Of a DNA stretch of 49,135 nucleotides, positions 3,306-47,758 are shown in pieces. Numbering within the stretch: the first letter of the stretch is position 1; each line of letters begins with the position of its first letter. The notes under the pieces were generated by a model. That model had not been told where the DNA came from. It ran no database searches and saw only the letters and a program-made list of their open reading frames with translations. The stretch comes from Pseudomonas phage phi297, in sequence record HQ711984.1. One strand, given 5' to 3'. The position numbers were made by a program, and so were the translations under genes.

Positions 3306-3625
3306 GGCGCATCCTCCGCAGGACCGGTGATGTGCTCCGCGTGCAGAGCGCGCATTCCCAGATTGGTGGCTACGGTGAACTCCAGCCTGGCGCCCTTCGA
3401 GTCCATCCAGCCGGGCAGCAGAGCGATTGCCTGGCAGGTGAGCAGCTTCTGCAGGTCGAGCCGCAGGTAGTCGGCCCACTCGAAGCCCGGAATCTCGCCG
3501 TGCTCGGCGGGGTTCTCGACCTGGTACCCGAGGCCTCGCAGGCGCGCGGCTTCGGCGTGGAACGCGGGGAAGTTGTGTTCGGGCAGGCCAGTCATGGGGC
3601 CTGCGAGGTAGATGCGCTGGGTCAC
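3302..3625 (-). CDS. DUF4406-like, nucleoside 2-deoxyribosyltransferase-like fold protein
   Basis: N-terminal IYLAGPMTG motif is typical of DUF4406 and nucleoside deoxyribosyltransferase / dNMP N-hydrolase-like proteins. GTG start with strong RBS GGGGAGGAG. GTGA overlap with the upstream MazG-like gene stop. Confidence 0.65.
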   Translation of the reverse strand: MTQRIYLAGPMTGLPEHNFPAFHAEAARLRGLGYQVENPAEHGEIPGFEWADYLRLDLQKLLTCQAIALLPGWMDSKGARLEFTVATNLGMRALHAEHITGPAEDAP

Positions 3626-4269
3626 GGCAGCAACTCCTCCCCGACCTGGCGGGCATGCTCGATGGAGCTGGCCTTGATGCGCGTCCAGCCCTTGCCCCAG
3701 TCCTGGCTCAGGCCGCCCTGGTCCCGGAAGAACGGACCGTGCTTCACGAAGACCTTGTTGCCGGCGTTGCGGTGCACGAAGTAGGTGTCATCGTCGATCG
3801 GGTCGTCTGCGCGGTCATGCTCGATTGCCTTGTCGGCCGGCGCCGTGCGCCAGTCCGGCCAGGTGCGCGCCTCGTTCAGCGCCTGCTTGGCGACCAGGGC
3901 GTCGATGATCTGCGCCGGAGTGGCGCCGGTGCGCCAAGCCCCGTCAAGGGCCAGGATCACGACGTCGATCCACTCGGCCAGGTCGCCGGGGGCTTCTTCG
4001 ATTTCGCGCAACTCTTTGCGGATGTGGTCGACGACGCCAGCGGCGCGCGACCCAGGCCCGAACGTGCGTTCGCTGAACCGGCGCTGGCGCTCAAGGTGCA
4101 GGTCGAGACGGAACACGTCCAGCCGCCCTCGGGCGCGGCCAAGCGCGTAAGCCTCGTCCTGGAACATCAGGAGGTGATCGCTGGTGCGTCCGGTCAGGAC
4201 ATCGAGATAGCGGCTGTGGAGCGCTTCAATGGCAAGGTGATCGTCGGGGTGGTTCTGGTTCGTCGTCAT
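3622..4269 (-). CDS. MazG-like / DUF550-type nucleotide pyrophosphohydrolase
   Basis: Start at the internal ATG 4267-4269 with RBS AGGTG. The region DHIRKELREIEEAPGDLAEWIDVVILALDGAWRTG...ARTWPDW matches the all-alpha NTP-PPase (MazG/DUF550) pattern. ATGA overlap with the upstream gene stop. Confidence 0.6.
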   Translation of the reverse strand: MTTNQNHPDDHLAIEALHSRYLDVLTGRTSDHLLMFQDEAYALGRARGRLDVFRLDLHLERQRRFSERTFGPGSRAAGVVDHIRKELREIEEAPGDLAEWIDVVILALDGAWRTGATPAQIIDALVAKQALNEARTWPDWRTAPADKAIEHDRADDPIDDDTYFVHRNAGNKVFVKHGPFFRDQGGLSQDWGKGWTRIKASSIEHARQVGEELLP

Positions 4270-4694
4270 GGCTGCACCTGCTGAAGTGGGCGATGGCCTG
4301 GTTTCGGCGGTAGGTGTGGGGTGAGCAGCGCGTCCTCGAGGGACATGCCTGCGGCGAGTCGCCGGCGGACGGTGCTGGCCGAGACGGGGCTCGGCAGCAG
4401 GTCGACCAACTCTTCGAGGGTTCCGGTTCTGCCGCGCACGGTGTGGGTGTGCTTTTCCTTGCGTGCCTGGCGGGCCTGGTCCAGTGCGCGGGCGAGTGCC
4501 GGCGTGCAGTAGCCCCGTTTCTGCGAGTTGGCCCGCTTGTGGTCCAGCGACTGGCCCTTCGCCGGCCACTCGATGTCCGGCATCAGGGTCAGCATTTCGC
4601 GGAATACCCATGGGCCGATGCCCAGGGCCAGCCGGGTGGCGCGGCGGGAAAGCCCGCGCGCGGCCGCGTTTCGAATGAACTGTTCGGTGTTCAT
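4266..4694 (-). CDS. HTH DNA-binding protein (142 aa)
   Basis: ATG at 4694 with RBS AGGTGG. C-terminal GTLEELVDLLPSPVSASTVRRRLAAGMSLEDAL is a helix-turn-helix. Confidence 0.5.
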   Translation of the reverse strand: MNTEQFIRNAAARGLSRRATRLALGIGPWVFREMLTLMPDIEWPAKGQSLDHKRANSQKRGYCTPALARALDQARQARKEKHTHTVRGRTGTLEELVDLLPSPVSASTVRRRLAAGMSLEDALLTPHLPPKPGHRPLQQVQP

Positions 4695-4797
4695 GCCGCC
4701 ACCTGTTGCGGTCTCGGCCGTAGCCGCCGCTTCCATGGGTCGTTCGCCCGGCCGTACTGGGTTTTGAAGTCGAGCGGGGAGGGCTTCTTGAGGGAAG

Positions 4798-7428
4798 TCA
4801 TGCGGCGGGTTCCTTCTGGATGATTTCAGCATCAGCCTCGAGCAGGGCGAACAGGTCGGGCATGGCCATCTCTTCCTCCGCGGACTTGCAATAGCCGGCA
4901 CCGTCCAGGAAGTAGCGGGAGTTCAGTTCGTGGGCGCGGGTTCTGCGCTTGAGCTTCAGCGCGCAGTACGGGACGGTCATGATCCCGCCGAAGGGATCGA
5001 AGACCAGGTCTCCTTCCATGGAGTACTGCACGATGGCCCGGTCGACGATGTCGAACTGCAGCGGGCACAGGTGCATTTCCTGGCCCTTGCTGTACTGCTG
5101 GGCGTTGAGCGTCCGCATGCGGGCGACGTCGGTCCATACGTCCGGGTGCCAGGACTGCGGTGGCAGCAGCATGAAGCCGGTGGGCAGCTTCCCGGTGACC
5201 TCCAGCGATTCGCCGATGCGGACGTGGTGCTCGAAGTCGTAGACGGTGGACAGGCTGTAGTCGCGGTACAGCTTGAACATCACGTCGTGCGGAATGCCTT
5301 CGAAGTCCGCTTCAGTCAGCGGACGGTTGCCGTTGCTGCGGGTGAAGCCGTGGGCGTCCAACTGCCAGCGTGCCCGGCTGTAGCCGTTGCCGCGGGTGAC
5401 GGTGAGCTTCTTGTCCATGGCGAAGGGGACGATCTGGCCGTCTTCGTCGATGCACAGGGGCTTGGCCTTGACCACCGGAATGTCGCCGTAGGCGTTGGAG
5501 TTGTCGGTGGGGGGCTTGCGGAAGATCAGCAGGTACTCGGGCATGCCGACACCCATCTTGGTGCCGTCCTTGCACTGTTCCGTCCACGAGAGGCGGTAGG
5601 TCTGGGCGTTCTCGCGAACCACGTCGGTGACGATGGTCTTCATGCCCATATAGGCCCAGCCATGCTTGACGAAGGCTCGAGTCACTTCCATGTGGAAGGG
5701 GTAGACGGTCTGGAAGCCAAGGCCGGTCATTCCGCCGGGAATGATGCGATCCTTCACGTGGATGCAGGCCAGACGCCCGGGGATGGTCACGCGCAGCAGT
5801 TCCGGGATCAGATAGTCCATCTGCTCGAAGAAGTGCGCGTTGTCGTCGGTGTGGCCGAAGTCGGCGTAGTTCGGCGAGTACTCGTACTGGGTGCTGAAGG
5901 GGATGCTGGTGATGGTCAAGCCGACGCTGTTGCTTTCCATGCGGCAGGTTTCGAGCACGGTGTCGTTGTTGACGATGGTGTAGTCCTTGCCCTTGATCTC
6001 GACGCGCTCCACGCCCATGGAGCGGGTGAGGGTCTGTGCCATGGCGGCCACGGACAGGCCGTACTGCTTGATGATCTCGGTCATGCGCTGAACCATGGTG
6101 TTGTGCTGCTGCCACTTCCGTTCGAGTTGGCGGCGGATGTCGCGCTCGGCCTCGGTATAGATCAGGTCGATGCGCACACGGCCTGTCTGCAGGAATCGGT
6201 GCAGGCGGTGAATGGACTGGATGAAGTCGTTGAACTTGAAGCCGATGCCCAGGTAGATGGCCCACGAGCAGTGGCGCTGGAAGTTGCAGCCGCTGCCTGC
6301 GATCACTGGTTTGGCAGCCAGTTCCTGGAACTCGCCGTCGCTGAACTGGACAATCGCGCGCTCGCGCTCCTCCAGATCCTGGGCGCCGTAGACGCTGATG
6401 GCGGTGGGGATAGCGGCCTCGATCGCGTGGCGTTCCGCCTCGAGGTCATGCCAGATGATCCGGTGAGCATCTGGAGCCTCGGCCCGGATCTCCATCAGTT
6501 TGGCGATCCGGGCAGGAAGGCTCTCGCGCTTCTCTGCGGCGGCGTCCTGCACGCCAATGGCGGTGTTGCGAAGCAGGCGGCCCTGGCCGTTACGCTCATG
6601 GCCAGCGTGCGAGTGGTCGGACGGTACTTCGTGCCAGCGGATGTCCAGTTCCGGTAGCGCGTAGCCTTCGTCGCTGAACCCGAGGTCGCTGGGGCGCTGA
6701 ACGAAGATCGCCCAGGACGCCACCCACATCCAGAACTCGCCCTCTTTGTGGGCATGGATGGTGAGTTGGTCGGCCTTCTCAGAGTTGCGTTTGAAGAACC
6801 TGGTCTTGGCCTGGCCGACATCCATCACGCCGAGGAAGGCCGAGTAAGCCAGTAGCTCGATGTATTCGTTCGGGCTTGGCGTGGCAGTGGCCACGTACCG
6901 GTACCGGACGCCATCGCCGCGGACGCCGGCGGCGCGATCGTCACCAGCGAACAGAGCCATGAACTCGCGGAACGTCTTGCTGCCGCCGAAGCCGCGAAGG
7001 CAACTGGCTTCGTCCAGGCTTGCCACGCTGAACCGGCGAGGGTCGAGCTTGCCGTCGCGGACGGTCTCGTAATTGGTCAGGTAGATGGTGGTGGGGTCGT
7101 CTACCTCGTCGAAACTGCGGATGAACCGGACGGTGATGCCGAGCATCGCGGCGTCGCGGTAGAACTCCTGGCGCACACCCAGCGGAATGGTGATGAGAGC
7201 GTAGCCGCCGGCTAGGTCGCGGGTGACGCGCACCACCTCAAGCTGCATTACCGACTTGCCCAGGCCGAAGGCCGCGAAACAGGCCGCGCGGCCTTGGCGC
7301 ACCAGCCAGGTGGCGATGGCGCGCTGGTGCGGCTTGAGCAGGGGGTTGAAGGCCGAGGGCTCCACTTCGAAGCCTTTCGGCTCGGCGAGGCGGACCTTCG
7401 CTCGCAAGAAGTCTTCATAGGCGGTCAT
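4798..7428 (-). CDS. SNF2/DEAD-like helicase fused to beta-class DNA (N6-A/N4-C) methyltransferase
   Basis: 876 aa from ATG 7428 with RBS AAGGAA. N-terminal Walker A FGLGKS and DEAS box (ASLDEAS). The C-terminal half carries a beta-class SPPY-like motif IV (TSIPFSTQYEY) followed by motif I (VFDPFGG). Confidence 0.8.
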   Translation of the reverse strand: MTAYEDFLRAKVRLAEPKGFEVEPSAFNPLLKPHQRAIATWLVRQGRAACFAAFGLGKSVMQLEVVRVTRDLAGGYALITIPLGVRQEFYRDAAMLGITVRFIRSFDEVDDPTTIYLTNYETVRDGKLDPRRFSVASLDEASCLRGFGGSKTFREFMALFAGDDRAAGVRGDGVRYRYVATATPSPNEYIELLAYSAFLGVMDVGQAKTRFFKRNSEKADQLTIHAHKEGEFWMWVASWAIFVQRPSDLGFSDEGYALPELDIRWHEVPSDHSHAGHERNGQGRLLRNTAIGVQDAAAEKRESLPARIAKLMEIRAEAPDAHRIIWHDLEAERHAIEAAIPTAISVYGAQDLEERERAIVQFSDGEFQELAAKPVIAGSGCNFQRHCSWAIYLGIGFKFNDFIQSIHRLHRFLQTGRVRIDLIYTEAERDIRRQLERKWQQHNTMVQRMTEIIKQYGLSVAAMAQTLTRSMGVERVEIKGKDYTIVNNDTVLETCRMESNSVGLTITSIPFSTQYEYSPNYADFGHTDDNAHFFEQMDYLIPELLRVTIPGRLACIHVKDRIIPGGMTGLGFQTVYPFHMEVTRAFVKHGWAYMGMKTIVTDVVRENAQTYRLSWTEQCKDGTKMGVGMPEYLLIFRKPPTDNSNAYGDIPVVKAKPLCIDEDGQIVPFAMDKKLTVTRGNGYSRARWQLDAHGFTRSNGNRPLTEADFEGIPHDVMFKLYRDYSLSTVYDFEHHVRIGESLEVTGKLPTGFMLLPPQSWHPDVWTDVARMRTLNAQQYSKGQEMHLCPLQFDIVDRAIVQYSMEGDLVFDPFGGIMTVPYCALKLKRRTRAHELNSRYFLDGAGYCKSAEEEMAMPDLFALLEADAEIIQKEPAA

Positions 7429-7570
7429 GCTGTTTCCTTGAGGAACGGCACACACCGGACGCCGCCCTGCCTGACAGGGCGGCCCACGAGGCATGGTTGA
7501 ATCGCCCACAGGGCGGCGTCCGGTGCGTGCTGGAAGAGAAAGCGCCCCAGGTGGGGCGCTGTATCGAGGG

Positions 7571-9316
7571 TCAGGCCGCAGCCTGTTGCTGCTGGTCGGC
7601 GAGTTGCCCGGCGTCGATCCAGACCGCTTGTAGCCAGGCCGGCGTCTTCGCCATCGGTTCCTTGAGCGTGCCGGCGACGATCAGCGTGTCGATCTCGCCG
7701 CCGGCGGCCAGGCTCTGGAACAGCTTCATCGCCTGCTGAGTGCGAGCAGGGATATCCAGCACGTCGAAGCGATCCAGCAACGCCAAGCGCAGGCCGGAAA
7801 TCGTCGCGATGGCCAAAGCGATGGTCGTGTCGCACCGCCAGCGCTCCGACTCGGACAGCAGGCCGTAGATCCGGCCGCCGAACGTGACGTCGATGTCGGC
7901 GCTGATCTGTACCGGCGACCAGCCGGCGGTGCCGGACAGGCGCTGCAGCAGCTCGTTCACCGGTCCGATCGCGTCGGCCAGGATTTCCGCCGGGATGCCC
8001 GTGGGGGAAAGGGCATCGGCCAGGGCGCTCCAGGCGCAGACCTCGGCGTGGAAGTCGGCGGCCTGCTTGATGACGTCCTGGCGCTGCGCGGCGGCGTTGA
8101 ACGCTTCCTGCAGCGACTGCACCTTGGCCTGCTGCCGGTCACGCGCCTGGCGCAGCTCGTTGATCGCCTGTTCGCCGTTGGCGATCGCCTCGGCGCTGGG
8201 CGCCTGGGCGGTTTCGGCTTCCAGCGCGGCGGCCTGCGCGGCGGCGTCCTCGCTCTCCTTCAGGTCCCGCTGGCTGTTGGCGACGGCCCGCTGAGCGCTG
8301 GCAAGATAGCCGCGGTATTCCTCCAGGCGTTTCGCCGCCTCGGGATCGGCAACCTTCGCCGGCGGCTGGTGCGGGACCAACTGGCCGGCCTGCAGGTCCA
8401 CGGCGCCCTGGCAATGAGGGCAGGTCAGCGGCTGGTGGGCGGGCTCTCCGCTGGCGGCGGCCTCGGCCGCCATGACCTTCTCCGACCATTCGTCCTGATT
8501 GGCCTCGTCGGTGGCCAGCTTGTTGCGCCGCCGGTCGGCCAGCGCTGCGGTTTCGCGCAGAGCGGTGATGCGGCTGGCCCGCGCCTGGGCGTCGGCGTGG
8601 GCGCGCTTGCTGGAGCCCAGGGTCTGCTGGGCCTCGTCCAGGTCCTGGGCGGTGGCTTGCAGTTCCGCGCGCGCCGATTCCAGTTCCTCCTCGCTGACGA
8701 TGGCTGGCGGCGCCTCCGGCTCCCACCCGTTCGCCTTGTCGCTGCCGTAGTTCTCGCCGGTGACCGCTTTCCAAGCGCCGCGCGCTTCGCTGGCGTAGGC
8801 CTTGGCCTGCTCGACGGCTGCCGGGAACCCGGAGCGGAGCAGGGGTTTCACCTTTTCGAAGAGCGCCAGGTCCAGGCCTTTGGCTTCCAGCCGCTTGCCG
8901 ACCTCGGCCGGGCTGGCGCTGGCGCCGGTCAGGTCGAACAGCACCCGGCGGCGATCTTTTGTGTCCAGAGCGGCGAAGCGGCTGGCGTCGAGCACGAACG
9001 GCAGGAACGGCGAGTCGGCGAGGGGCGAACCCTTGCCGCTGGGCAGCGCGACGCCGCAGGCCTGCACCTCGCCGGATTCGTCCAGCCACTCGACACGGGC
9101 CTCGCCCTTCTTGGCGCCCTCGGTGATCAGTTGGCCGATATGCTGCTTCTGCGCAACGCGGCCGGGCTTGCCGGTGAAGGCGTGGCTGATGGCGTCGAGC
9201 AGCGAACTCTTGCCGGCGCCGTTGTGGCCGGCCACCAGGAGCACCGGCGCAGAAACATCTAGGGCCGCATGACGCAGCCCTTGGAAGTTGGTGATTTCGA
9301 GTTTCGTGATGCGCAT
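7571..9316 (-). CDS. SbcC/Rad50-like SMC-family ATPase (zinc-hook CPHC)
   Basis: 581 aa. Walker A GHNGAGKSS at the N-terminus. Long coiled coil with CPHCQG hook. C-terminal LALLDRFDVLD Walker B/D-loop. RBS GGAG. Confidence 0.8.
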   Translation of the reverse strand: MRITKLEITNFQGLRHAALDVSAPVLLVAGHNGAGKSSLLDAISHAFTGKPGRVAQKQHIGQLITEGAKKGEARVEWLDESGEVQACGVALPSGKGSPLADSPFLPFVLDASRFAALDTKDRRRVLFDLTGASASPAEVGKRLEAKGLDLALFEKVKPLLRSGFPAAVEQAKAYASEARGAWKAVTGENYGSDKANGWEPEAPPAIVSEEELESARAELQATAQDLDEAQQTLGSSKRAHADAQARASRITALRETAALADRRRNKLATDEANQDEWSEKVMAAEAAASGEPAHQPLTCPHCQGAVDLQAGQLVPHQPPAKVADPEAAKRLEEYRGYLASAQRAVANSQRDLKESEDAAAQAAALEAETAQAPSAEAIANGEQAINELRQARDRQQAKVQSLQEAFNAAAQRQDVIKQAADFHAEVCAWSALADALSPTGIPAEILADAIGPVNELLQRLSGTAGWSPVQISADIDVTFGGRIYGLLSESERWRCDTTIALAIATISGLRLALLDRFDVLDIPARTQQAMKLFQSLAAGGEIDTLIVAGTLKEPMAKTPAWLQAVWIDAGQLADQQQQAAA

Positions 9317-9319
9317 GGC

Positions 9320-10291
9320 TCACTCCAGGGTGATGGGCGCTTCGGCCGGGGCCTTCTCGGCAACGGTCACGCGGTAGGTGTTGAGGTCTGGTGTTTCGCC
9401 TTCGGCGTCCAGCGTGATCACGCCGTCGTCGAGCAGCTTCAGGGCCACGGCCAGCGACTCGTCGGTGCTCAGCGCGAAGCGGGACTGCAGCCAGCCGGGG
9501 GTGATCTGGTCCTTACGCAGCACCAGGACAGTGATGTCGTCGATGGTGTGGCCGCCGTAGGTTGTGTCGCCGGGCTTGGCGGCGCTGCTCAGCAGGTCTT
9601 TTTCCGGTTCCGGCGGCGATTGCAGGATCACCTCGCGCTCGCCGTTGGAGTTCGGTGCCGATACGACCCCGGCCGCCTCCATCGCTTCAACGATGCGCGC
9701 GGCACGGTTGTAGCCGATCTTCAGGTGCCTCTGGATGGAACTGATGGTTGCCTGGCGGGTGTCGCGGACATGTGCGACAGCCTCGAGGTACAACTGATCT
9801 TCACTGCCATCGCCCAGCAGCCCCTCTGCGACGTTGCCAGCGTGCAGCGGCATTTCGTGCTGGTCGCGGTCGGGACGGACGTCGTCCAACCCCTCGTCGT
9901 AATCGCTCGGTGCCATTACCAGCAAGCACAACTTGCCAGCAGCGTCGGTCAATTCGTGCTTGTTCGGCTCTGCGCCGTCTACCTTCGCCGTGATCGTCAT
10001 GGTCTTGGCTTCGACCTTGATCGCTTTCATATCGACTGGAACGGAGACTGCGCCGCGGGAAGCAATGATGCTGATGGCCACCCTGGTCACTTCGCTCACG
10101 CTTTCCGCTATGCGATCGATCACTTCCTGCTGCTCGTCTTCCTTCAGCAGGTGGAAGGGCACACGGACACTGCGCAGTTCGGTGACCACCGTGTTGACCA
10201 GGTCGCGCTCCAGCAACTCGTGCGCGATAGTGCTTGGGTAGTAACCGTGTAGTTTGGCGCGGTCGATGATCTCGCGGTGTTCGGCTTTCAT
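9320..10291 (-). CDS. phage protein with FtsK-gamma (KOPS-binding winged-helix) domain
   Basis: 323 aa. Central [31 protein letters not shown] matches the FtsK gamma motif. RBS AGGAG. Confidence 0.7.
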
Positions 10292-10303
10292 CCGGTGGAG
10301 CTC

Positions 10304-10504
10304 CTATTCGTTGGCAATCCGCTCCAACTGCTCGAGTTGGGCGTCGCTGAGGTAGGTGTGGGCGCCGTAGCGCTGGAAGTTGCTGCGGAGGTCGGCCAGG
10401 AACTGCTCGTCCCAGTCCGTAGCGGCGTTGAGCTCAGCCGCGCCGAGTAGCGCGGCGAACTCCCCGACCTGGCCGTACCGCTCAAGGACAGTGAGGCTGG
10501 GCAT
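10304..10504 (-). CDS. hypothetical protein (66 aa)
   Basis: Track ORF tightly packed between RecT and the FtsK-gamma gene. Confidence 0.45.
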   Translation of the reverse strand: MPSLTVLERYGQVGEFAALLGAAELNAATDWDEQFLADLRSNFQRYGAHTYLSDAQLEQLERIANE

Positions 10505-10510
10505 GGCCGG

Positions 10511-11344
10511 TTACTCGAGGTTGAGCTCGTCGGTGCCGGTGTCCGGCTGCTGATCGGCGGGCTGGCGCTGAGCCGACTTGGTGATCTCGCCACTGACGGT
10601 GTCGATCACTTCTCCGGGTTCGTGTTCCAGAGCCTGCTGGCCCGCGCCCGGCACCTTGTCGGTGACTTCCTGCTGGCGCCGCAGCACGTCGAGGTCGACC
10701 GTGAACGAGCCGTCGGCGTCGCGCTTGGCATCGATGACGTCCTGCAGCTCTTCAGCGGTCTGCAGGCCCATGCCGAGGTCCGGCGCATAGGCGCGCTGCC
10801 AGAATGCGGCGGCGCGGTAGATGAACATCTGGTCCGGCATCGTCTTCCACTTGCTGCCGTTCTTCGCTGCCCAGCCTTCGTCGTTCACCATTTTCCAGGT
10901 GACCCAGATGCCGTCGAGGCGTTCGCCGGTGGACTTCTCAATCGCCCAAGCCCGGCAGCCGTAGTCGGAACTGCCTGGTTCGCCTTTCCACTCGTAGCGC
11001 ATTGAGGAGAAGCGACCGCAGGTGTTCACCGTGGCGATCAGAAACTTACTCGACCAGCCCGGGGTGCCATGCACGATGTAGAGGTTCTGCATGACCATTA
11101 GCGGGTTCGCGCCCATGCGCTGGGCCATGTCCAGCGCAATCATGCAGTTGGGCAGGTTGCCCTGGTACTGCTTGGGCACCAGGTCAGCCTGGCTGAAGGC
11201 CTTGGCGATGCGCTGCATCAGCTCGAAGCCGTCCATGTTGAAGAACGACATAGCGACAGGTGCCTTGTCGCGCTGACGCGGAGCCACGGCTTGCGTCTGC
11301 AGGGTTTCGAGGGTGGTTGTCTGGCTCATGGTGTCTCCGGTCAT
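10511..11344 (-). CDS. recT: RecT-family single-strand annealing protein
   Basis: Family-level resemblance to RecT-type annealing proteins, adjacent to the exonuclease gene. ATGA overlap with the exonuclease stop at 11341-11344. An alternative ATG at 11329 has a GGAGA RBS. Confidence 0.65.
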   Translation of the reverse strand: MTGDTMSQTTTLETLQTQAVAPRQRDKAPVAMSFFNMDGFELMQRIAKAFSQADLVPKQYQGNLPNCMIALDMAQRMGANPLMVMQNLYIVHGTPGWSSKFLIATVNTCGRFSSMRYEWKGEPGSSDYGCRAWAIEKSTGERLDGIWVTWKMVNDEGWAAKNGSKWKTMPDQMFIYRAAAFWQRAYAPDLGMGLQTAEELQDVIDAKRDADGSFTVDLDVLRRQQEVTDKVPGAGQQALEHEPGEVIDTVSGEITKSAQRQPADQQPDTGTDELNLE

Positions 11345-12144
11345 TCGTGGTAAGGGCAGGTCCGCCAGCGCGGACAGTACTTCGGGCTGCAAAGTGGGCT
11401 TTGCGGGTTCGGCGGGAAGAGGCCGGAACGGAACATGTCGGCCGCGAACTTGATCAGGCCGTGGTGCGACTCGCTGCCAGCCATCATCTGGCGCGCGCCG
11501 ACGATCTCGCCGACTGCCGCCTCGGGCTTGCCCTTGGTCTTCAGGCCGATGATCTCGGCCGGCGCGGTGATCGCATCGCCGGTGGTGTGCTCGTAGAGCA
11601 GTTCGTAGGTGCCGATCTGGGCCTTGTTCCCCTTGGTCTTGGCCACGCCCTGGCTCACCGCAGCGCCGCCGGTCTTCACGTCTGCGATGCCGACGCCGTG
11701 GCTATCGCGCTTGATGCGGGCGCGGTCGAGCTGGCCAGTGAGGCGGACGATGACCCCGCCGCCGCAGTCGATCTCCATCGGCTTGGTCGTCAACTCGACG
11801 GCGACGAAGTCGTAGTGCGGGCTGATGTCGTTGCAGTACTTCGTGTGCAGCGTCAGTCCGGTGGACTCGGCTTCGCGCGGGCTGATGTCGGAGCCGCGCC
11901 AGTCGACCTCGAACTCCGGCTGCTGCAGCGTGTGCACCAGCAGTTCCGAGGCGTCGTAGGCGCTGATCGGCTCGCCGTTGACCCGTGCCGCGTCGAACGC
12001 GGCGGTGCTGGCGTGGATCGCGGTACCGAGCAGCGCCCGGGGGGATGAAGGGCTGCGCATCTTCAGGAGGTGTACGCCCTCCCACTTGAACGCGCAGTCG
12101 AACAGCGCGCCCCAGGACGAGGCGCGCACGGTGATGGTTTGCAT
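11341..12144 (-). CDS. PD-(D/E)XK exonuclease, Cas4/RecB-like with Fe-S cysteines
   Basis: 267 aa. N-terminal Cys (DCAFKW) plus C-terminal CSPKYCPRWRTCPYHE cluster typical of Cas4-like nucleases. Partner of RecT. Confidence 0.75.
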   Translation of the reverse strand: MQTITVRASSWGALFDCAFKWEGVHLLKMRSPSSPRALLGTAIHASTAAFDAARVNGEPISAYDASELLVHTLQQPEFEVDWRGSDISPREAESTGLTLHTKYCNDISPHYDFVAVELTTKPMEIDCGGGVIVRLTGQLDRARIKRDSHGVGIADVKTGGAAVSQGVAKTKGNKAQIGTYELLYEHTTGDAITAPAEIIGLKTKGKPEAAVGEIVGARQMMAGSESHHGLIKFAADMFRSGLFPPNPQSPLCSPKYCPRWRTCPYHE

Positions 12145-12151
12145 GGTTGGC

Positions 12152-12247
12152 TCACTTCCCGGCGATGGGTGCCGTGGCGGGTTGTTCGGCGGTGATCAGA
12201 CCGCCCCAGGCAGAGGCGAAGATGAGCAGGATGTAGAAGGCAGTCAT
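12152..12247 (-). CDS. possible 31-aa hydrophobic microprotein (MTAFYILLIFASAWGGLITAEQPATAPIAGK)
   Basis: Short ORF ending 8 nt before the exonuclease start. No clear SD, so weak. Confidence 0.2.
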   Translation of the reverse strand: MTAFYILLIFASAWGGLITAEQPATAPIAGK

Positions 12248-12272
12248 GGCCAGTGCGCCGAGGAGGGTGGCT

Positions 12273-12464
12273 TTACGCTTGGCATTCACGACGCACCCCC
12301 AGGCACTTCCGGCCGCGCTTGATGGTCAGCGCCATGCGATGCGGCAGGTTCACCACCAGGGTCTCGCGCGGCAGGCCGAGCACCGCAGCGATGTCGGCGC
12401 CGGCCGGCATCACCAGGTCGTCGAGTTGGTCGTCGATGATCGAGCGAACGGGGCGGGTGGTCAT
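12273..12464 (-). CDS. small HTH-like protein (63 aa)
   Basis: Internal ATG at 12464 overlapping the upstream stop (ATGA). RBS AGGAG. IAAVLGLPRETL looks like an HTH. Confidence 0.45.
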   Translation of the reverse strand: MTTRPVRSIIDDQLDDLVMPAGADIAAVLGLPRETLVVNLPHRMALTIKRGRKCLGVRRECQA

Positions 12465-12682
12465 AGGTCGATGCTCCTCAGTTCCTGCTGTCTCGCATCC
12501 GCTGCGGCGTCGAGCCGGCGGCGCATGTCGTCGTATTGCCGAGTGCCGATGGCGTCCAGCGTGTAGGCCATCTCGATCTGGCCGCGCCATACCAACTGGT
12601 CGTGGCGCGGGATCACCGACCGACGCATTGCGACGATCGCTTCCTCGATCACGCCCTCGGCGCGCTCATTCGCCCAGGCCAT
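12461..12682 (-). CDS. hypothetical protein (73 aa, MAWANERAEG...)
   Basis: Internal ATG at 12682 with RBS AGGAGG at 6 nt. The longer 182-aa track ORF's Ser/Pro/Arg-rich extension is rejected. Confidence 0.5.
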   Translation of the reverse strand: MAWANERAEGVIEEAIVAMRRSVIPRHDQLVWRGQIEMAYTLDAIGTRQYDDMRRRLDAAADARQQELRSIDL

Positions 12683-12818
12683 CGTCGGCCTCCTGCTCTT
12701 CGTCCTCGGGCTCCGGTTCCGGCTCCGGCTGGTCCCAGAGCGGGTCTCTGGCGAAGTCCCAGGCGTGCTGGGCGTTGCTGCAAGCCGCGCGGTTGCGGCG
12801 CTCGCGGTATGTCCACAT
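12666..12818 (-). CDS. possible 50-aa Trp-rich acidic microprotein (MWTYRERRNRAACSNAQHAWDFARDPLWDQPEPEPEPEDEEQEADDGLGE)
   Basis: ATG at 12818 with RBS GGAGAG at 8 nt. The stop overlaps the start of the 73-aa gene. Below the track cutoff. Confidence 0.3.
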   Translation of the reverse strand: MWTYRERRNRAACSNAQHAWDFARDPLWDQPEPEPEPEDEEQEADDGLGE

Positions 12819-13396
12819 CGGGATGCTCTCCGTGGTTCACCTGCATTCGGCTGAACGCTCACGCCGCCGGGCTTGCCCGATGGGGAAGGCGGGGAGCGTT
12901 CATGCGAATGCGGGCGGTGAAAAAAGCCCGGCCAGAGCCGGGCGAAGAGGGGGAACGCTGCATGCGCAGCGGGGAGTGATCTGACCGGTCGCGACTCCGG
13001 CTCTGGCATCAGTGCGCTTCTCGGGTGTTTGCCGCTGTTGCGGTGACTGTGCTGATGCCCGGAACTTCATCGGCCATTGGCCGCCCACGTGCGCGCTTGT
13101 TCCCGCGCTTCCCGCGTGTCTCCAGGGAGCTTTCGGCTCCCAGCTTCCACGCCGCAGATCACTCCCCGCTGCGCCCTGGCCGATCCAGGAGCAGGAAAGA
13201 GAAGGGCGCCGCCAAGCGCCCTGTCTCCACTTACATGCACCGCCTTATGTGAAAGCGGTTGGGTACAGGCTCGACCGCATGTTGGCGATCTGCCGTTGGG
13301 GCTGGGCTACATGTCGGTATCCTCCGTTGTGCGCGCCGTTCGACCGGCGGGCGCTCGCCGTGGGTTAAACGCCCGGCAATGGGCCAGGAGCCGAAG

Positions 13397-13768
13397 TCAG
13401 GAGATCGCAGTGCAGGACCGCAACGCGACCGGCGCCGATTGGCCTTCGATCCAGATAACCGCGGCCCCGCCGAGCGACACGCTGGCCCGGCCGACGGTGC
13501 GGGTGCGCTGCGGTTCGGCCCCGCGGTACGGCCGGTATTCGATCAGCGCTGGCGCCGGGTGCTCTCGGTTCCAGGCCTCGACCAGCTCCGCCGGCGGCAC
13601 CGGACGGACGTTGCCAATCTGCTGGTAGATCTCGGAGCGGTGGATGGCGACGTCGTCCGGGGCGGTGATGCCGAGGCGCACCTGGTCGCCTTGGCTGCTG
13701 AGGACCGTGACGGTGATGTTGTCGCCGATATGCAGGGTTTCGCCGGGGCGGCGGGTCAAGATCAGCAT
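13397..13768 (-). CDS. CsrA/RsmA-family post-transcriptional regulator homologue with ~60-aa C-terminal extension
   Basis: From the internal ATG 13768 (RBS GGAG). [51 protein letters not shown] aligns with RsmA/CsrA ([33 protein letters not shown]). Total length is 123 aa. Confidence 0.75.
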
Positions 13769-13800
13769 GGTGTGACTCCGTTCGGGGTGGTGGGTGGCCG

Positions 13801-14064
13801 TCAGCCCAAGCGATCCGGGACGACCTTCATTGCCTCGGCGACGAGCTTGTGGGCCCCTTCGGAGTCCACCGTGGCGAACCCCTTTTCGGCGTGGTCCCAC
13901 TGCTCATCCTCGTCGCCGGGGAAGTTGCTGCACGCCACTGAACAGACGCCAAGCCCGTCGGGCTTGAAGTAGAGGCGCACCTCTGGGCCGTCATCCCCGC
14001 GATCAAGCATCACGAGCACCTGGCCCAGGTCTTCGAACTCGAACAGCTTCGCGAACTGCTTCAT
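13801..14064 (-). CDS. hypothetical acidic protein (87 aa)
   Basis: ATG at 14064 with strong RBS AAAGGAGAGGAA. The track's alternative start at 14079 is rejected. Confidence 0.55.
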
Positions 14065-14075
14065 TTCCTCTCCTT

Positions 14076-14204
14076 TCACGGTTGGCAGCCGGCCAGCGCG
14101 CCGAAGACCACGCGGGCGGTGGTCGCGAGGCCGACCATGAAGATGGCCAGTCCCAGGCCGAGCAGGGCACCCTCACCCACGGCTTTCAAAGTTCTTCTGT
14201 TCAC
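14076..14204 (-). CDS. 42-aa hydrophobic peptide (MNRRTLKAVGEGALLGLGLAIFMVGLATTARVVFGALAGCQP), first ORF of the leftward operon
   Basis: GTG at 14204 with GGAGGG at 6 nt. It has a single TM helix. It lies immediately downstream of the long structured leader. Confidence 0.4.
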   Translation of the reverse strand: MNRRTLKAVGEGALLGLGLAIFMVGLATTARVVFGALAGCQP

Positions 14205-14671
14205 GTCTTGCCCTCCAGGGCGTGTTGACTTCCCGTCTGGCCCTCGGTGGAGGGCCAGCCAGTGAAATCGGTGTTGCTCCCGCGTTCGCCTACTGGGCTT
14301 CTACAACCCGCGGGTGGTGCTTCTGGTGTCTCCGTAAACCGCTCAGCCGGCATGCCGAACGTCGCAGTCTTCTTGCTCGGACGCTGTTACCCGCCACCTG
14401 CGCCTGGGCGATGATTTCTGTCCTCACTGCAAGCGCTTTCGGCGCCTGTCCGCTGTGTTCCCCACCTTTCGGCGGTACCAGGTACAAAGCCACCATCTGA
14501 GTGACCCTGGCAGGGAGCGTGAGCAGTGCAGACCCTCGGCGCGCGATTCCAGATGCGTCGCGTCAGCCTTGAGCCTGGCCGGCAACCAGAGGCCGGCATG
14601 GGTTCCCAAATTGTCAAAAGAGCGCGGCTCGGTGGCCTGGCCAGCGGTGTGTTGCTGGTGTGAGACTGAAT

Positions 14672-14730
14672 ATAAGCGTGCTTATTTTGAGTGTCAATAA
14701 GTCTGCTTATATTTTGATATGAGCGCTTAC
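14672..14730. promoter_or_regulatory. OL-like operator cluster: ATAAGCGTGCTTAT (14672-14685), ATAAGTCTGCTTAT (14697-14710), degenerate ATGAGCGCTTAC (14719-14730)
   Basis: 14-bp palindromes ATAAG-N4-CTTAT with 25-bp centre spacing. The same motif recurs three times between the repressor and cro genes. Confidence 0.55.
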
Positions 14731-14768
14731 CGAATTCGGGCTTGCTCTCTTCAGGGATATTGAAAATA

Positions 14769-14784
14769 CTGTATAAAAAAACAG
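14769..14784. promoter_or_regulatory. LexA (SOS) box CTGTATAAAAAAACAG
   Basis: Perfect CTGT-N8-ACAG with an AT-rich spacer, 5 bp upstream of the RBS (GGAGG at 14790-14794) of the 14800 gene. Confidence 0.6.
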
Positions 14785-14799
14785 TATTTGGAGGTTGGC

Positions 14800-15135
14800 A
14801 TGGCTGCGCAGAAGAAGAACAACCAGGGGAAAGGACAAGTCTCGCCAGTGGAGAAGGTGCGTCTCCGGGTATCAGCGATGATCAATAGTCCGCGGGCTCA
14901 GGTGGAGCGCCGGGCGTCGATCTGGAAGGCGCAGGGGGATTCGGAAGAGGCCTGGCAGCAGGTGCTGGAGGAGTTGGCCGAAACCGATGGACTCGAGATG
15001 TCGCTGGGGGAGGACGGAGTGGTTACGCTCACCTGGGAGGCGGGAGACGAGGAGGGCGTTGAAGTGGTCGATGGGATCGAACTGGTGCAGGAGCCGGACA
15101 TGGTGGTTCAGCGCCTTCACGAGGAGAGGGCGTAG
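14800..15135 (+). CDS. acidic 111-aa protein (SOS-box controlled); candidate antirepressor or DNA-mimic
   Basis: RBS GGAGG. Basic N-terminus (AAQKKNNQGKG), then a very acidic C-half (EEAWQQVLEELAETDGLEMSLGEDG...DEEGVEVVDGIELVQE). Confidence 0.65.
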   Translation: MAAQKKNNQGKGQVSPVEKVRLRVSAMINSPRAQVERRASIWKAQGDSEEAWQQVLEELAETDGLEMSLGEDGVVTLTWEAGDEEGVEVVDGIELVQEPDMVVQRLHEERA

Positions 15136-15279
15136 GCTGAGGTCGAGCCAGCGGGCCGGGGGGACTCAGGCGGACTCTGGATGTGGGGTCAGGCGAGGAA
15201 GGACTGCGCTGTATCGAGCTCACCGCCGGGGCGGTCGTCTACTCAGCGCTGAGTTGGGAGTGAAGGGTAGGAACGAAAA

Positions 15280-15309
15280 GGCCGCGCCGGGGAAGGTTCC
15301 GGCGCGGCC
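15280..15309. terminator. bidirectional intrinsic terminator (11-bp perfect stem GGCCGCGCCGG / CCGGCGCGGCC)
   Basis: A-run before the stem and T-rich after it. It lies between the convergent 14800 gene and the ParA-like/cI transcript. Confidence 0.5.
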
Positions 15310-15460
15310 TGGTCCTTTCGGTGTTGTGCCTTCAAGGACACCTCAATGTATCAAATGCGCGGCTGAAGTGAAAAGGCCGCACTGGAGTCGAGGCGCGGTC
15401 TGTTGCCGGGCTGCTGTCATCCCTGGCCGGCGGAGGGAATCTGTCAAAGGCGGGCAGGGA

Positions 15461-15486
15461 CGAAAAGCCCCGCGGGTGCAGGGCTT
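15461..15486 (-). terminator. intrinsic terminator after the ParA-like gene (AAGCCC-N10-GGGCTT TTCG on minus strand)
   Basis: Hairpin plus U-tract 6 nt after the stop codon. Confidence 0.45.
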
Positions 15487-15491
15487 ATGAT

Positions 15492-16502
15492 TCAGAGGCT
15501 GGTGACTAGATCAGAAATCGCTCGCTGGTAACGCTCGATTGGCTCGTTATTGACCTGAGGCTTCGTGTCGTAGACCTCGTAGCTGCCTGGCTTCACATCG
15601 TACAGAGGCAGACCTAGGTGCGAGGAAACAATCGCAACAGAATGGTTGTCAGGCACTTCAAATCGCTGCAATTCACCACTCTGGAAAGCGCTTGGCTTCT
15701 TGTCTTTCAGATTTCTCGCTCGCGCTTCGATATTGTCGAACATGGCTGAAAATGCCTTGCTCGCCTTTTTGTCGTATTGCGTAGAGCGATTGAAGACGAA
15801 GGAGTGAATAACAGGGACCGGAGCGCCAAATTGATTACTTCGGTCAAAGAAGCTAACGGCCTTGTAGGCGTCCTGAACATCAATCCCGTAGACCAGTTGA
15901 CCAAGGTTGTCGATCGCTCGCGCGGAAGAGCCATCGCTCGAACATGGGACGATAATCTGGTTGGCAGCCAGAAGCGCGAGTTCAGTGTAGGCCGCGAAGC
16001 TGGGATTGCAGTCGATGAAGCAGGTGGTTTCTTGCTCACCAAGGTAATTGCCACAGGCCGTTACCAGATCCTTGAGCCAGAGGTGGACATTCTTCCAAGA
16101 GTCTGCCGGCAGGCTGACGGCGCTCAATTGGTTGATTACAGGAGCCTGGACCTCAAGACTTGGATCACCTGCCAGGCAGTAAAGATTGTCTGGCATGTTG
16201 GCGTTGTGATCCTTCCCTTTCACCAAAAAAGACGTCTCACTACCCGTAATCGCATGTGCGCTACGTGTGCGGGCATCAAAATACCCGCCGATGGTTTTGC
16301 GCTGAGCAATGAGCTTTCCAAGCGCAGCGGCACCTTTGCCGTTACCGCCAAGAATGATCTCCGAAAGGTTGGCCTGCGGGCACATGTCAGCGACGATGAC
16401 GCGCTTTTCAGGATGAATTCGTGCATATTCTGACGCGATAGCAAACGTCAGGTAAGTCTTACCGACCCCACCTTTGTTGTTCCATATCGCATACGATTTC
16501 AT
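15492..16502 (-). CDS. ParA/MinD-family ATPase (deviant Walker A KGGVGKT) with ~100-aa C-terminal extension; low-GC moron at the rex position
   Basis: ATG at 16502 with RBS AGGTG. MKSYAIWNNKGGVGKTYLTFAIASEYA is a ParA-type P-loop. GC clearly below that of the surrounding phage. It sits directly downstream of cI on the same strand. Confidence 0.75.
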   Translation of the reverse strand: MKSYAIWNNKGGVGKTYLTFAIASEYARIHPEKRVIVADMCPQANLSEIILGGNGKGAAALGKLIAQRKTIGGYFDARTRSAHAITGSETSFLVKGKDHNANMPDNLYCLAGDPSLEVQAPVINQLSAVSLPADSWKNVHLWLKDLVTACGNYLGEQETTCFIDCNPSFAAYTELALLAANQIIVPCSSDGSSARAIDNLGQLVYGIDVQDAYKAVSFFDRSNQFGAPVPVIHSFVFNRSTQYDKKASKAFSAMFDNIEARARNLKDKKPSAFQSGELQRFEVPDNHSVAIVSSHLGLPLYDVKPGSYEVYDTKPQVNNEPIERYQRAISDLVTSL

Positions 16503-16685
16503 GTTTGCACCTGTCCCGGCCGTTACCTTTTTCGTGCCTTTCATTCTATCAGAACTCCCCATTATTTCGGCTGATCGCCGCAATTCCTTTCGCTCGTTGT
16601 GATTGGCGACTGACTGACTCCGCTCGCCCCACGATCCTCCACGCGCCTACCTACAGATCCCCACCCCGCCAGATGACCTTGCCTG

Positions 16686-17522
16686 TCAAAGCTTTCTGAA
16701 GTTCCAGGCTCCCAGGACCTTGGCCTGGAAATGGACGTCCTCCATTCGGGCCTTCTGCGGCTCGAAGGACTTGTTGTCCGACACCAGCAGGTAGTGCTCG
16801 GCATCGTGGATCTGCACCCGCTTCACGAACAGGTGCTGCAGCCAGGTGAAGACGTAGACGCCTTCCTCGACGAAGTCGGTAATGCCCATGTCGACGAGGA
16901 TCGGGGACTTGTCCTCGATGGTGCCCAGCATGCTCTGGCCCCACCCAGTGATGATCTTGAGGTTGGCCGGATCGGTGTACTTCAGGCCGAGATCATCCAG
17001 TTGGACCTTGTCGACGACCAGATTCCTGACGAACTCGCGGTACTCGGCCGGCACCTGGCCGCCGCCCATGGCAGCGCGCACGTCGTACTGGGCGATCGAG
17101 ATCGTATTTCCTTTCACTAGGGTGGTGCGGCTGAAGTCAGCGTGAATCACGTTGCTTTCGGCTGGGCCCGCATCACTCTCGGCGGCGTTAAGAATTCTTT
17201 CCCTTGCTTCCGCTGAAAGCTTCTGCGCCGCCTTGCTTGCCAGCATGCTGCGGACGATGTCAGCAGCAGACGACGCTGCTTGATACTCGGCGCTAGGCTC
17301 TCGGACAGAAAGCCCGGGCGGCTGACCAGTTCCTTCAGCCAGCCATTCCGGATCGACCCCACAGACGTTCGCTATCTTCAGAAGATGAACACTCTGCAAA
17401 TTCTCGCCTTTCTCAAGCTGAGAGATCACCGGCTGCGAAACGCCCACAGCCTCTGCTAGCTGTCGCTGGGTAAGGTCCGCGTGCTTGCGGGCTAGCTTGA
17501 TTCGGTCTTTGAGTGCGCTCAT
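16686..17522 (-). CDS. cI-like repressor: XRE-HTH + S24 LexA-like autopeptidase
   Basis: HTH RQLAEAVGVSQPVISQLEKG. C-terminal GWGQSM (Ser nucleophile) and VKRV (Lys). The start ATG 17522 abuts the operator cluster. Confidence 0.85.
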   Translation of the reverse strand: MSALKDRIKLARKHADLTQRQLAEAVGVSQPVISQLEKGENLQSVHLLKIANVCGVDPEWLAEGTGQPPGLSVREPSAEYQAASSAADIVRSMLASKAAQKLSAEARERILNAAESDAGPAESNVIHADFSRTTLVKGNTISIAQYDVRAAMGGGQVPAEYREFVRNLVVDKVQLDDLGLKYTDPANLKIITGWGQSMLGTIEDKSPILVDMGITDFVEEGVYVFTWLQHLFVKRVQIHDAEHYLLVSDNKSFEPQKARMEDVHFQAKVLGAWNFRKL

Positions 17523-17534
17523 CCGGGGCAATCT

Positions 17535-17595
17535 ATAAGCGCCCTTATGGACTTGCAAATAAGCCTCCTTATTAATAGGATATAAGTGTGCTTAT
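17535..17595. promoter_or_regulatory. OR-like tripartite operator: ATAAGCGCCCTTAT (17535-48), ATAAGCCTCCTTAT (17559-72), ATAAGTGTGCTTAT (17582-95), with divergent PRM/PR
   Basis: Three 14-bp palindromes at 23-24-bp spacing. Putative PR -35 TTGCAA and -10 TAGGAT overlap the two rightmost sites. Confidence 0.6.
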
Positions 17596-17612
17596 CTAGA
17601 AGGTCCATAGAA

Positions 17613-17825
17613 ATGACCCCCATCGAAAAGCTTGTTTCTTACTTCGGCGACCAGACGAAGACGGCCAAGGCCTTGGGGGTTTCCCAGGCTGCGGTTTCGT
17701 ACTGGCTGGCGGGTATCTACGTAATGCGCGCCGATCTGGCCTTCAAAGCAGAAGAGCTGACTGGTGGCGCCGTGACCGCCAAGGAACTCTGTGCTCGTCC
17801 CGTTGCAAATAGCGTCGTTGCTTGA
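17613..17825 (+). CDS. cro: Cro/YdaS-like HTH regulator (70 aa)
   Basis: ATG 17613 with RBS GAAGG. KALGVSQAAVSYWLAG is HTH-like. It is divergent from the repressor. Confidence 0.7.
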   Translation: MTPIEKLVSYFGDQTKTAKALGVSQAAVSYWLAGIYVMRADLAFKAEELTGGAVTAKELCARPVANSVVA

Positions 17826-43857: not shown

Positions 43858-45012
43858 TTAATTGTCCTCGATTTTAAGATTAGATGATGAGTAAAGCCCA
43901 AGTGCGGCAGGTAGTAATAAATATGTAAAGTATTTCCCAACAAGAAGAAGCACTATTGTCACTGCGAGAATTGAGAATGCGGATATTTCTCTATTAGTCT
44001 GCGCGCTTCCGAGTGCTATATTTATTCCTAGTTTTACGGTTGGACCTATTGAGATGATGAGTATAAACAAGAATCCGAATAGTCCTAGGTCGTTCCATGC
44101 TGAAAGGATGTTGTGTATGTACTCGCCTTTTTCATATTTTCCATAGTTTCCTAGTATTGGGCTTTCCATTATCTTGTTTAGTCCTTCAGATGCTATACGG
44201 CTCCGCTCATTGCTCGAATTGTCATGCTGAAGATCAAGCAGATTTGCTACTCTGCTATCTGGAATCTCCACTATTCCAGAACTAATGGTTGCCACTGATC
44301 CTGCTGAAACTATGATAAGGGCAAGTATAGGGAGTCCCTTGTTTTTTGACGACAGAAACTCGTAGGTTGCCGCAAATAGAGCGTATGCAACGAATTCGCT
44401 TCTCGCACCATTTATGTAAAGGCAGGCTATCGCTACAGCATGCGCAATGCATCTGGTAGGCAATGATCGCACTCCCGTAACAAGAGCAACCGAAAGCAGC
44501 AAGTAACAGAGGGCGAAGGTTTGATATCCCGGTATCTTATCTACGTCGCTGGGGAGCTCTCTAAGCGAGAATCTTCCGTCTACAGTAAATATAAGAATGC
44601 ATGCGGATGAAGCAATCCACGCAGTTTTAAGAGCTAGCCCCGGTAGTCGGTCAACTCTGAAAGCACCCTTGCATATAAGAAAAACGGCTGCGCATTGTGC
44701 GATTGAAACCATGTGCCATGTGAAGATATAGCTTTCTTCTTCTCTGTTTAAAATTACGATGCACAGGAAAAATAGAAGAAATCCAAAGTACGTCAGATCA
44801 ATTACAGCTATTCGTCCTGTTCTGAGCGTGGTCCACAGATATAGCGGAGCAAGTATTGCGAGCGCGGCTGCGGATGTTTTTCCAAAGTATCCAGTAATAA
44901 GCGCCGGAATCAGTCCATTTGTTGTCGCTACGTAATAAAGAATCGTTCCTGGGAACAGGAGAAGGAAAAGGATGTATGGGACGGTTGAAAACGGGATCTT
45001 GGTCCTATTCAT
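43858..45012 (-). CDS. wzy: Wzy-type O-antigen polymerase/ligase-family polytopic membrane protein (serotype conversion)
   Basis: 384 aa with ~10 TM helices and a large periplasmic loop. GC is far below the prophage average. RBS GGAGAAAGGAA. Confidence 0.7.
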   Translation of the reverse strand: MNRTKIPFSTVPYILFLLLFPGTILYYVATTNGLIPALITGYFGKTSAAALAILAPLYLWTTLRTGRIAVIDLTYFGFLLFFLCIVILNREEESYIFTWHMVSIAQCAAVFLICKGAFRVDRLPGLALKTAWIASSACILIFTVDGRFSLRELPSDVDKIPGYQTFALCYLLLSVALVTGVRSLPTRCIAHAVAIACLYINGARSEFVAYALFAATYEFLSSKNKGLPILALIIVSAGSVATISSGIVEIPDSRVANLLDLQHDNSSNERSRIASEGLNKIMESPILGNYGKYEKGEYIHNILSAWNDLGLFGFLFILIISIGPTVKLGINIALGSAQTNREISAFSILAVTIVLLLVGKYFTYLLLPAALGLYSSSNLKIEDN

Positions 45013-47709: not shown

Positions 47710-47758
47710 TAGTACATTCCTTAGTACATCTGAATTTGGTTTTTCCGGGAATGTACTA
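47710..47758. repeat. 8-bp TAGTACAT repeats: two direct copies (47710-17, 47722-29) and one inverted copy ATGTACTA (47751-58) abutting the int start codon
   Basis: Exact copies in an AT-rich leader. Candidate arm-type or AlpA sites. Confidence 0.4.

Follow-up and report, generated by a model that had tools for sequence, protein, structure and literature searches.

The ParA-like gene of phage phi297 and its surroundings

The subject of this study is a gene for a ParA/MinD-class ATPase, hereafter the ParA-like gene, of Pseudomonas phage phi297 (HQ711984.1), whose whole 49,135-nt stretch forms the window of our analysis. Judged by sequence comparison, this gene most likely adds a new member to a family of single-gene phage-defense systems that was discovered only lately and is known from GiPD474 of Salmonella prophages. 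It lies in the phage immunity region, which comprises the following features:

17586–17825, plus strand: cro-like gene (P22_Cro/YdaS), divergent from cI
17534–17595, no strand assigned: oR, three copies of the 15-nt palindromic operator TATAAGCGTGCTTAT between cI and cro
16686–17558, minus strand: cI-type repressor gene (HTH_3 and Peptidase_S24), 183 bp upstream of the ParA-like gene and on the same strand
16503–16685, minus strand: spacer or leader of 183 bp between cI and the ParA-like gene; fold z = +1.1 (no stable structure)
15492–16502, minus strand: ParA/MinD-class ATPase gene, 336 amino acids, DxCPQ family, distant GiPD474 homologue
15465–15486, minus strand: terminator T1, directly 3' of the stop codon of the ParA-like gene; fold of -16.2 kcal/mol, z = -3.97
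15279–15310, minus strand: terminator T2, a tool prediction with a 12-bp GC stem followed by UUUUCGUU; -31.7 kcal/mol, z = -5.69
14788–15135, plus strand: DUF1654 gene (PHROG_2707) within the immunity region, about 75 bp away from oL and pointing toward the ParA-like gene (convergent)
14669–14713, minus strand: oL and pL-like promoter, with two TATAAGCGTGCTTAT operator copies (14671–14710) overlapping the promoter

The operators oR and oL/pL bracket this segment from both sides, which places the ParA-like gene and the DUF1654 gene within the immunity region; the latter is conserved backbone that is also present in phage D14H and other Pseudomonas phages. The immunity architecture is lambda-like, and the slot between cI/oR and oL/pL is the one that holds rexAB in lambda, just as an earlier note on this sequence had proposed. 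That slot is a documented hotspot in which lambda carries rexAB and phage BTP1 carries bstA (PMC8585504). Lambda rexAB and Salmonella BTP1 bstA share with the window gene this location (cI to oL/pL-N), a terminator after the cargo, and a presumed transcription together with the repressor, but neither has any sequence or fold relationship to it: RexAB is a two-protein system of sensor and membrane channel, and BstA, a KilA-N/DNA-binding protein, has a self-immunity element that is based on DNA.

The pL-like sigma-70 promoter (14697–14669, minus strand; TTGACA-17-TATATT, an 11/12 match) fires leftward and thus away from the ParA-like gene, so that transcription of the latter is possible only from the cI promoter or from a promoter in the leader. 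No terminator was predicted in the spacer, and a scan of it for sigma-70 promoters found none; an extended -10-like motif (TGATAGAAT at 16551–16543) and an AGGTG Shine-Dalgarno sequence 5–6 nt ahead of ATG 16502 were recognized by eye only. With the strand of cI shared, a spacer without any predicted terminator, and two terminators with similar U-tracts behind it (both already suspected in the earlier note, as were the strand and a distance of around 180 bp to cI), the ParA-like gene is probably expressed in the lysogen. An Rfam scan of 14300–17800 gave no match, and a small same-strand open reading frame (ORF) downstream of the gene was sought in the window and not found.

The ORF as such spans 15492–16583 on the minus strand, and the in-frame ATG at 16502 yields a 336-amino-acid protein beginning with MKSYAIWNNKGGVGKT. 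An alternative ATG at 16544 would give 350 amino acids and is the start chosen by NCBI in most P. aeruginosa copies. The start equivalent to 16502 is the one used by most family members, and the nucleotide match to a 91%-identical copy (L016) begins exactly there. ORF, start codon, and Walker A motif thus agree with the ParA-type P-loop gene (KGGVGKT, around 336 amino acids) that had been described from the bare sequence. Its guanine-plus-cytosine (GC) content is 0.521 as compared with 0.621 for the window, in accordance with the low value noted before, and its GC content at third codon positions (GC3) is 0.588 versus 0.70–0.90 in neighboring genes. A GC content this low is reached by no more than 3.8% of 1011-bp segments, and the ParA-like gene fell below the GC content of its own locus in all 8 hosts examined.

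Cassette exchange between cI and pL

Comparison with phage D14H (vB_PaeS-D14H, L001) gives the borders of the segment that differs between the two phages. Homology covers the 3' half of cI, ends at 16651, 35 bp past the cI stop codon, and resumes at 15484, 8 bp past the stop codon of the ParA-like gene, with T1 being backbone common to both phages. In the corresponding slot of D14H (L001 3816–5083, cI to terminator), two unrelated genes of 84 and 300 codons take the place of the ParA-like gene. At another locus (L038), the same cassette is found behind a different repressor and its homology with the window starts at 16683, which indicates that the leader travels with the gene. As far as these alignments tell, the ParA-like gene is an exchangeable cassette and the comparison with D14H captures a clean swap at the cI-pL hotspot, making the locus a well-defined example of such exchange.

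A Pfam scan of alternative cargo genes in the slot, including the D14H pair, was uninformative, and the D14H pair had no Pfam match; these 84-aa and 300-aa genes are candidates for alternative immunity-region cargo. As a separate illustration of the hotspot, E. coli lambdoid prophages with an L032-type repressor (H21–H35) carry varied cargo downstream of cI, comprising DUF3037, DUF6932, KilA-N, and hypothetical proteins.

Protein fold and the DxCPQ signature

The PHROG ParA-like profile aligns to residues 1–318 of the window protein, and an AlphaFold 2 model (mean predicted local distance difference test 89.4, predicted template modeling score 0.90) has a single ParA/MinD fold with the seventh strand at 280–284 and the last helix at 319–335. 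Since the profile reaches residue 318 and the modeled sheet residue 284, the extra approximately 85 residues are insertions within the fold, and the non-ParA C-terminal tail of about 100 amino acids that the earlier note had postulated does not exist. Inspection of the model gave no evidence of a MinD-like C-terminal membrane helix. In NCBIfam, only sub-threshold P-loop matches were obtained, with the ParA cut-off being missed (42 bits vs. 180).

Both nucleotide-binding motifs are intact, the deviant Walker A with its signature lysine K10 and K15 and the Walker B with D164. The deviant Walker A NNKGGVGKT is invariant and includes the signature lysine by which partition ParA proteins are recognized, and the motifs WNNKGGVGK[ST], DxCPQ, and IDCNPS are common to all clades of the family. 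In profile alignments, the DMCPQ of the window protein falls onto VDLDPQ or VDCDPQ of solved ParA proteins, so that a cysteine replaces the second aspartate of the Walker A' motif DxDPQ. This cysteine was present in 75 of 75 genomes checked and in all clades. Within the clade of the window protein, variable segments are confined mainly to residues 209–226 and 262–281, and the motifs of the nucleotide site are nearly invariant. The second Walker A' aspartate activates the hydrolytic water in Soj (studied with D40A/D44A) and MinD (D40A), and its loss results in ATP-bound dimers without turnover. With the catalytic aspartate missing, we infer that the proteins of this family may be slow-hydrolyzing ATP switches.

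Compared with canonical ParA, Soj, MinD, and McdA proteins (e.g., PDB 8ray, 6noo, and 2bek), the window protein therefore differs by the cysteine at the second Walker A' aspartate as well as by the inserted residues, and its gene comes without ParB, MinE, McdB, or any other adaptor and without a centromere. Ten longer relatives (449–595 amino acids) were checked for domain fusions and had only AAA_31 and CbiA. An apparent fusion of 1383 amino acids (L095) proved to be a spurious high-GC ORF, and the R78-x4-H83 sequence in the insertion was rejected as a cryptic HEPN motif, given that H83 is often glutamine and that the region forms no HEPN bundle.

Relationship to GiPD474

GiPD474 (STM474_RS13505, WP_000368620.1) is encoded by one stand-alone gene of 1086 bp, which lies in the immunity regions of Gifsy-1 (S. 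Typhimurium 4/74) and of Gifsy-3 (14028s) (Bosma, Noireaux & Bowden, Applied and Environmental Microbiology 2025; PMC12724215). Its deletion restores plating of phage Felix O1 (FO1), which was also followed up by complementation, and plasmid-borne GiPD474 in LT2 and E. coli K-12 lowers the plating efficiency of FO1, Alf5, and T4 by around 5 logs, with no effect on T7, SP6, LPST153, Jbel, VpaE1, and S16 (PMC12724215). The gene is highly transcribed in lysogens during growth, and its discoverers suggest a block after adsorption (PMC12724215).

The GiPD474 paper is indexed by the Pfam family AAA_31 in its text, and the protein that presumably corresponds to GiPD474, P0345, was retrieved by a search seeded with a Klebsiella phage protein. 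P0345 has 361 amino acids with GGVGKT at residues 29–34 and represents a 159-member cluster from E. coli and Salmonella (including Typhimurium); in our view, it either is GiPD474 itself or shares at least 90% identity with it. In a full-length alignment of 341 columns, the window protein shares 39% identity with P0345 (E = 8e-81). It is hence below the threshold of at least 70% identity that defined homologues in the GiPD474 survey (PMC12724215) and lies outside that survey.

Both genes stand alone, without a partner gene, in a prophage immunity region beside a cI/cro/cII module, both are low in GC and horizontally spread, and their products share the ParA/MinD/Soj-like fold, the GGVGKT Walker A, and the motifs DxCPQ, IDCNPSF, PCxxDxxSxR, and NRS. 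They differ in that the window protein belongs to a distinct sister clade and a Pseudomonas host, and in that this clade reaches many phyla, archaea, P1-like plasmids, and IS-flanked sites (IS, insertion sequence). Among the features that would mark a gene as being of the GiPD474 kind, full-length homology (to P0345), the fold with GGVGKT, and the state of a single gene in an immunity region are found in the window gene on comparison of the sequences; its expression in the lysogen is probable, and reduced plating of phages upon expression of the gene alone is a property shown for GiPD474. Of the earlier proposal that the gene is an uncharacterized prophage-encoded defense or exclusion factor, the defense part gains support from this homology, from the position of the gene, and from the checks on repressor co-occurrence and on ParB/parS described below, while the family can no longer be called wholly uncharacterized.

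Distribution and genomic contexts of the family

The ParA-like proteins form a large family with more than 3000 matches of around 335 amino acids that retain 57–60% identity across phyla. At least 577 matching loci were found in one scan of species-representative genomes, including those of Acidobacteriota, Planctomycetota, Chloroflexota, cyanobacteria, Bdellovibrionales, Spirochaetia, and archaea. A neighbor-joining tree places the window clade next to the GiPD474 clade as its sister, with the HEPN-linked clade (see below), the S.Inf clade, and the ColE1-plasmid clade outside them.

The co-occurrence with repressors in other prophages, which the earlier note had suggested as a check, turned out to be widespread: a cI-like repressor is encoded directly upstream and on the same strand in 52 of the 78 evaluable loci of IMG/VR, and these upstream repressors fall into 13 clusters with less than 50% identity between clusters. 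Placement downstream of cI recurs in three ParA-like subclades that are mutually just 35–39% identical. The same arrangement behind a repressor is seen for a Serratia copy and for two genes of 35–39% identity, one from Klebsiella phage ST11-VIM1phi8.2 and one from Salmonella phage S.Inf 5-2. ParA-like genes of two different clades occur behind repressors of one type (mutual identity 65%). In some enterobacterial prophages (L026–L028, L034), a DUF3024 gene lies between the repressor region and the ParA-like gene. A 5873-bp sequence deposited as a Salmonella Infantis plasmid (L122, NZ_CP148804.1) contains a lambdoid immunity region (repressor, cro-like gene, and cII) together with a ParA-like gene and matches the unverified "Salmonella phage S.Inf 5-2" at equal identity.

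Beyond integrated prophages, relatives of the ParA-like gene are found as solitary cargo in three settings: after kilA-repL in P1-like phage-plasmids, whose ParA-ParB operon lies elsewhere, beside the replicon; on 5-kb ColE1-type (ColRNAI) plasmids; and at IS-flanked chromosomal sites of bacteria and archaea, one of them in O. alaskensis. The chromosomal neighbors of solo-clade genes in 58 species are mostly varied housekeeping genes along with IS1 and IS1595 transposases. Among the four neighbors on either side in 80 genomes, no conserved partner was found except in the HEPN-linked clade, and there was no ParB in the solo clade. One solo ParA-like gene, in Halomonas sp. GDM18 (L125), adjoins an opposite-strand run of five genes at 9233–17011 (694, 133, 290, 419, and 1124 amino acids) that have no Pfam match and may be an unrecognized system.

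A related clade linked to HEPN genes

One clade of the family, 40–44% identical to the window protein and endowed with the same DxCPQ signature, is coupled to a gene of the HEPN_RiboL-PSP family (around 200 amino acids, motif RHSFAHG) that follows 10–13 bp downstream in 17 genome loci. The clade, represented by L099–L119 and by one such pair on an IMG/VR viral contig (L130), was found mainly in cyanobacteria, Chloroflexota, and similar groups. A HEPN (Rx4-6H) gene directly downstream is absent from the window and from the window's clade.

The ParA/Soj-HEPN dyad has been predicted to be a toxin-antitoxin or conflict module with the ATPase as antitoxin (Anantharaman et al. 2013, Biol Direct 8:15; PMC3710099). 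Our literature searches on ParA-like prophage defense, on RiboL-PSP with ParA, and on MAE_18760 retrieved only this prediction and no experiment on the dyad. The dyad and the window gene share the ATPase family and a patchy distribution on mobile elements, and they differ in the HEPN_RiboL-PSP gene that follows the ATPase in the former.

Function of the ParA-like gene

We think that the ParA-like gene is a lysogen-expressed, stand-alone anti-phage defense (or exclusion) gene of the GiPD474 kind and assign this interpretation a probability of roughly 65%. The gene would be cotranscribed with cI in the manner of rexAB and bstA, be transcribed from its own leader, or use both routes. Its product may form an ATP-bound sandwich dimer that, devoid of the catalytic aspartate, would hydrolyze ATP slowly and work as a switch rather than an oscillator. 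Once phage DNA has entered, the ATPase would bind either some component of the phage or DNA, be it the nucleoid or phage DNA under replication, and block a step after adsorption, possibly with the loss of the cell. In the HEPN-linked clade, the same ATPase would serve an RNase effector as its sensor or regulatory subunit; in the solo clades, it would have to be the effector itself or act via a universal cellular target, in keeping with the reported activity of GiPD474 after transfer from Salmonella to E. coli.

Three other functions deserve consideration. Partition is what the databases suggest by annotating "ParA family", and a genuine partition or positioning ATPase for the excised or replicating phage genome or for the host chromosome, working via a host ParB or without adaptor, would make use of the complete ParA fold with signature lysine and agree with the presence of family members on plasmids. 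Yet, the prophage integrates by means of a tyrosine integrase (encoded at 47758–48876 on the plus strand), and neither a ParB, a small centromere-binding gene, nor parS-like repeats were found, in agreement with the earlier note; the only repeats near the gene are the cI operators and terminator tracts. The consistent pairing of homologues with parB/parS that the earlier note had named as counterevidence to its proposal was not observed either: P1-like carriers have their own parA-parB, and ColE1-type carriers are high-copy plasmids. Moreover, the catalytic aspartate required for the ATPase cycle of partition ParAs is a cysteine in every member of the family. Out of 5 features that define a type Ia or Ib partition ParA, the window gene has just one, the deviant Walker A motif, and we consider this role very improbable. 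A somewhat better, though still low, likelihood belongs to lysogenic conversion, with the protein mimicking or hijacking a ParA/MinD-type system of the host and any phage resistance being an indirect receptor effect. The systems that we have in mind are Min division-site selection, control of flagellar number by FleN/FlhG, and the positioning of pili or chemoreceptors. Against this idea speaks that the same clade, at 50–60% identity, also turns up in widely differing phyla and in archaea without such systems, that GiPD474 is active in more than one genus and seems to take effect after adsorption, and that the membrane helix of MinD is not evident on inspection of the AlphaFold 2 model.

The solo ATPase might also be an orphan antitoxin or anti-defense protein that neutralizes HEPN RNase toxins of ParA-HEPN modules in the host or in rival elements and so shields the prophage, and solo antitoxins on mobile elements are indeed a known theme. 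It is the tight operonic coupling of the related clade to HEPN_RiboL-PSP genes (10–13 bp gap at 17 loci) and the prediction that the ParA/Soj-like ATPase is the dyad's antitoxin (PMC3710099) that speak for this idea. However, the clade in question is only 40–44% identical to the window protein and was not found in Pseudomonas or enterics. Besides, GiPD474 alone lowers phage plating in naive E. coli, which is a phenotype of defense and not of anti-defense, and we therefore see little chance that the orphan antitoxin explains the gene.

The interpretation as a GiPD474-like defense gene has weak points of its own that lower our confidence in it. The defense role of the window protein and of its clade is read from sequence, and lysogen expression, dimerization, slow hydrolysis, and DNA binding are all properties that we infer. 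An identity of 39% to P0345 leaves room for another function or another range of phages, and P0345 is equated with GiPD474 by its length, the position of its motif, and its taxon rather than by the accession WP_000368620.1. No model of PADLOC-DB v2.0.0 matched the window protein (E <= 0.1) or homologues from four other clades (E <= 1), and the solo-clade neighbors in 58 species displayed no defense-island enrichment, with a single match to a type I restriction-modification system. The very high conservation of about 58% identity across phyla would also be unusual for a sensor involved in an arms race.

Defense by a single ParA/MinD-class ATPase is already known from one Salmonella protein described in one paper of November 2025 (PMC12724215). 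Our analysis adds to this how widely the family is distributed and that it bears the DxCPQ signature, along with its connection to the HEPN dyad, its carriage by P1-like and ColE1-type elements, and the exact boundaries of a cassette. If the window gene belongs to it, the defense family extends to prophages of Pseudomonas aeruginosa, which is relevant to phage therapy, and includes a much larger, very conserved clade across phyla and archaea; the aspartate-to-cysteine change and the HEPN-coupled clade would then be concrete entry points to the mechanism. More speculatively, and with the odds against it, the DxCPQ ParA-like ATPases might all be one pan-prokaryotic immune module, the core of which would be a hydrolysis-impaired ATP switch that acts alone (as in the window clade, the GiPD474 clade, and the ColE1-plasmid clade) or gates a HEPN RNase. 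Such a module would constitute a mechanistically undescribed principle of defense with a ParA-class ATPase of nucleoid or DNA surfaces as immune sensor or effector, and no other branch of it would be as widespread and as conserved as the window clade.

Other genes of the window

Several genes elsewhere in the window came to our attention. An ORF on the minus strand at about 13397–13768 has a CsrA/RsmA-like N-terminus (recognized by eye), and its homologue in D14H is annotated as "Bacteriophage control infection protein". The early-left operon (3622–10291, minus strand) encodes a DNA methylase of 903 amino acids, an SMC/RecF-like AAA_23 ATPase of 581 amino acids, and two proteins with an FtsK-gamma domain and a dATP/dGTP pyrophosphohydrolase domain, respectively. 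Finally, a gene with a weak match to Wzy_C (O-antigen ligase/polymerase-like; 43858–45012, minus strand) occupies the stretch of lowest GC content in the window (0.43) near the integrase gene, together with which it resembles a serotype-conversion module.

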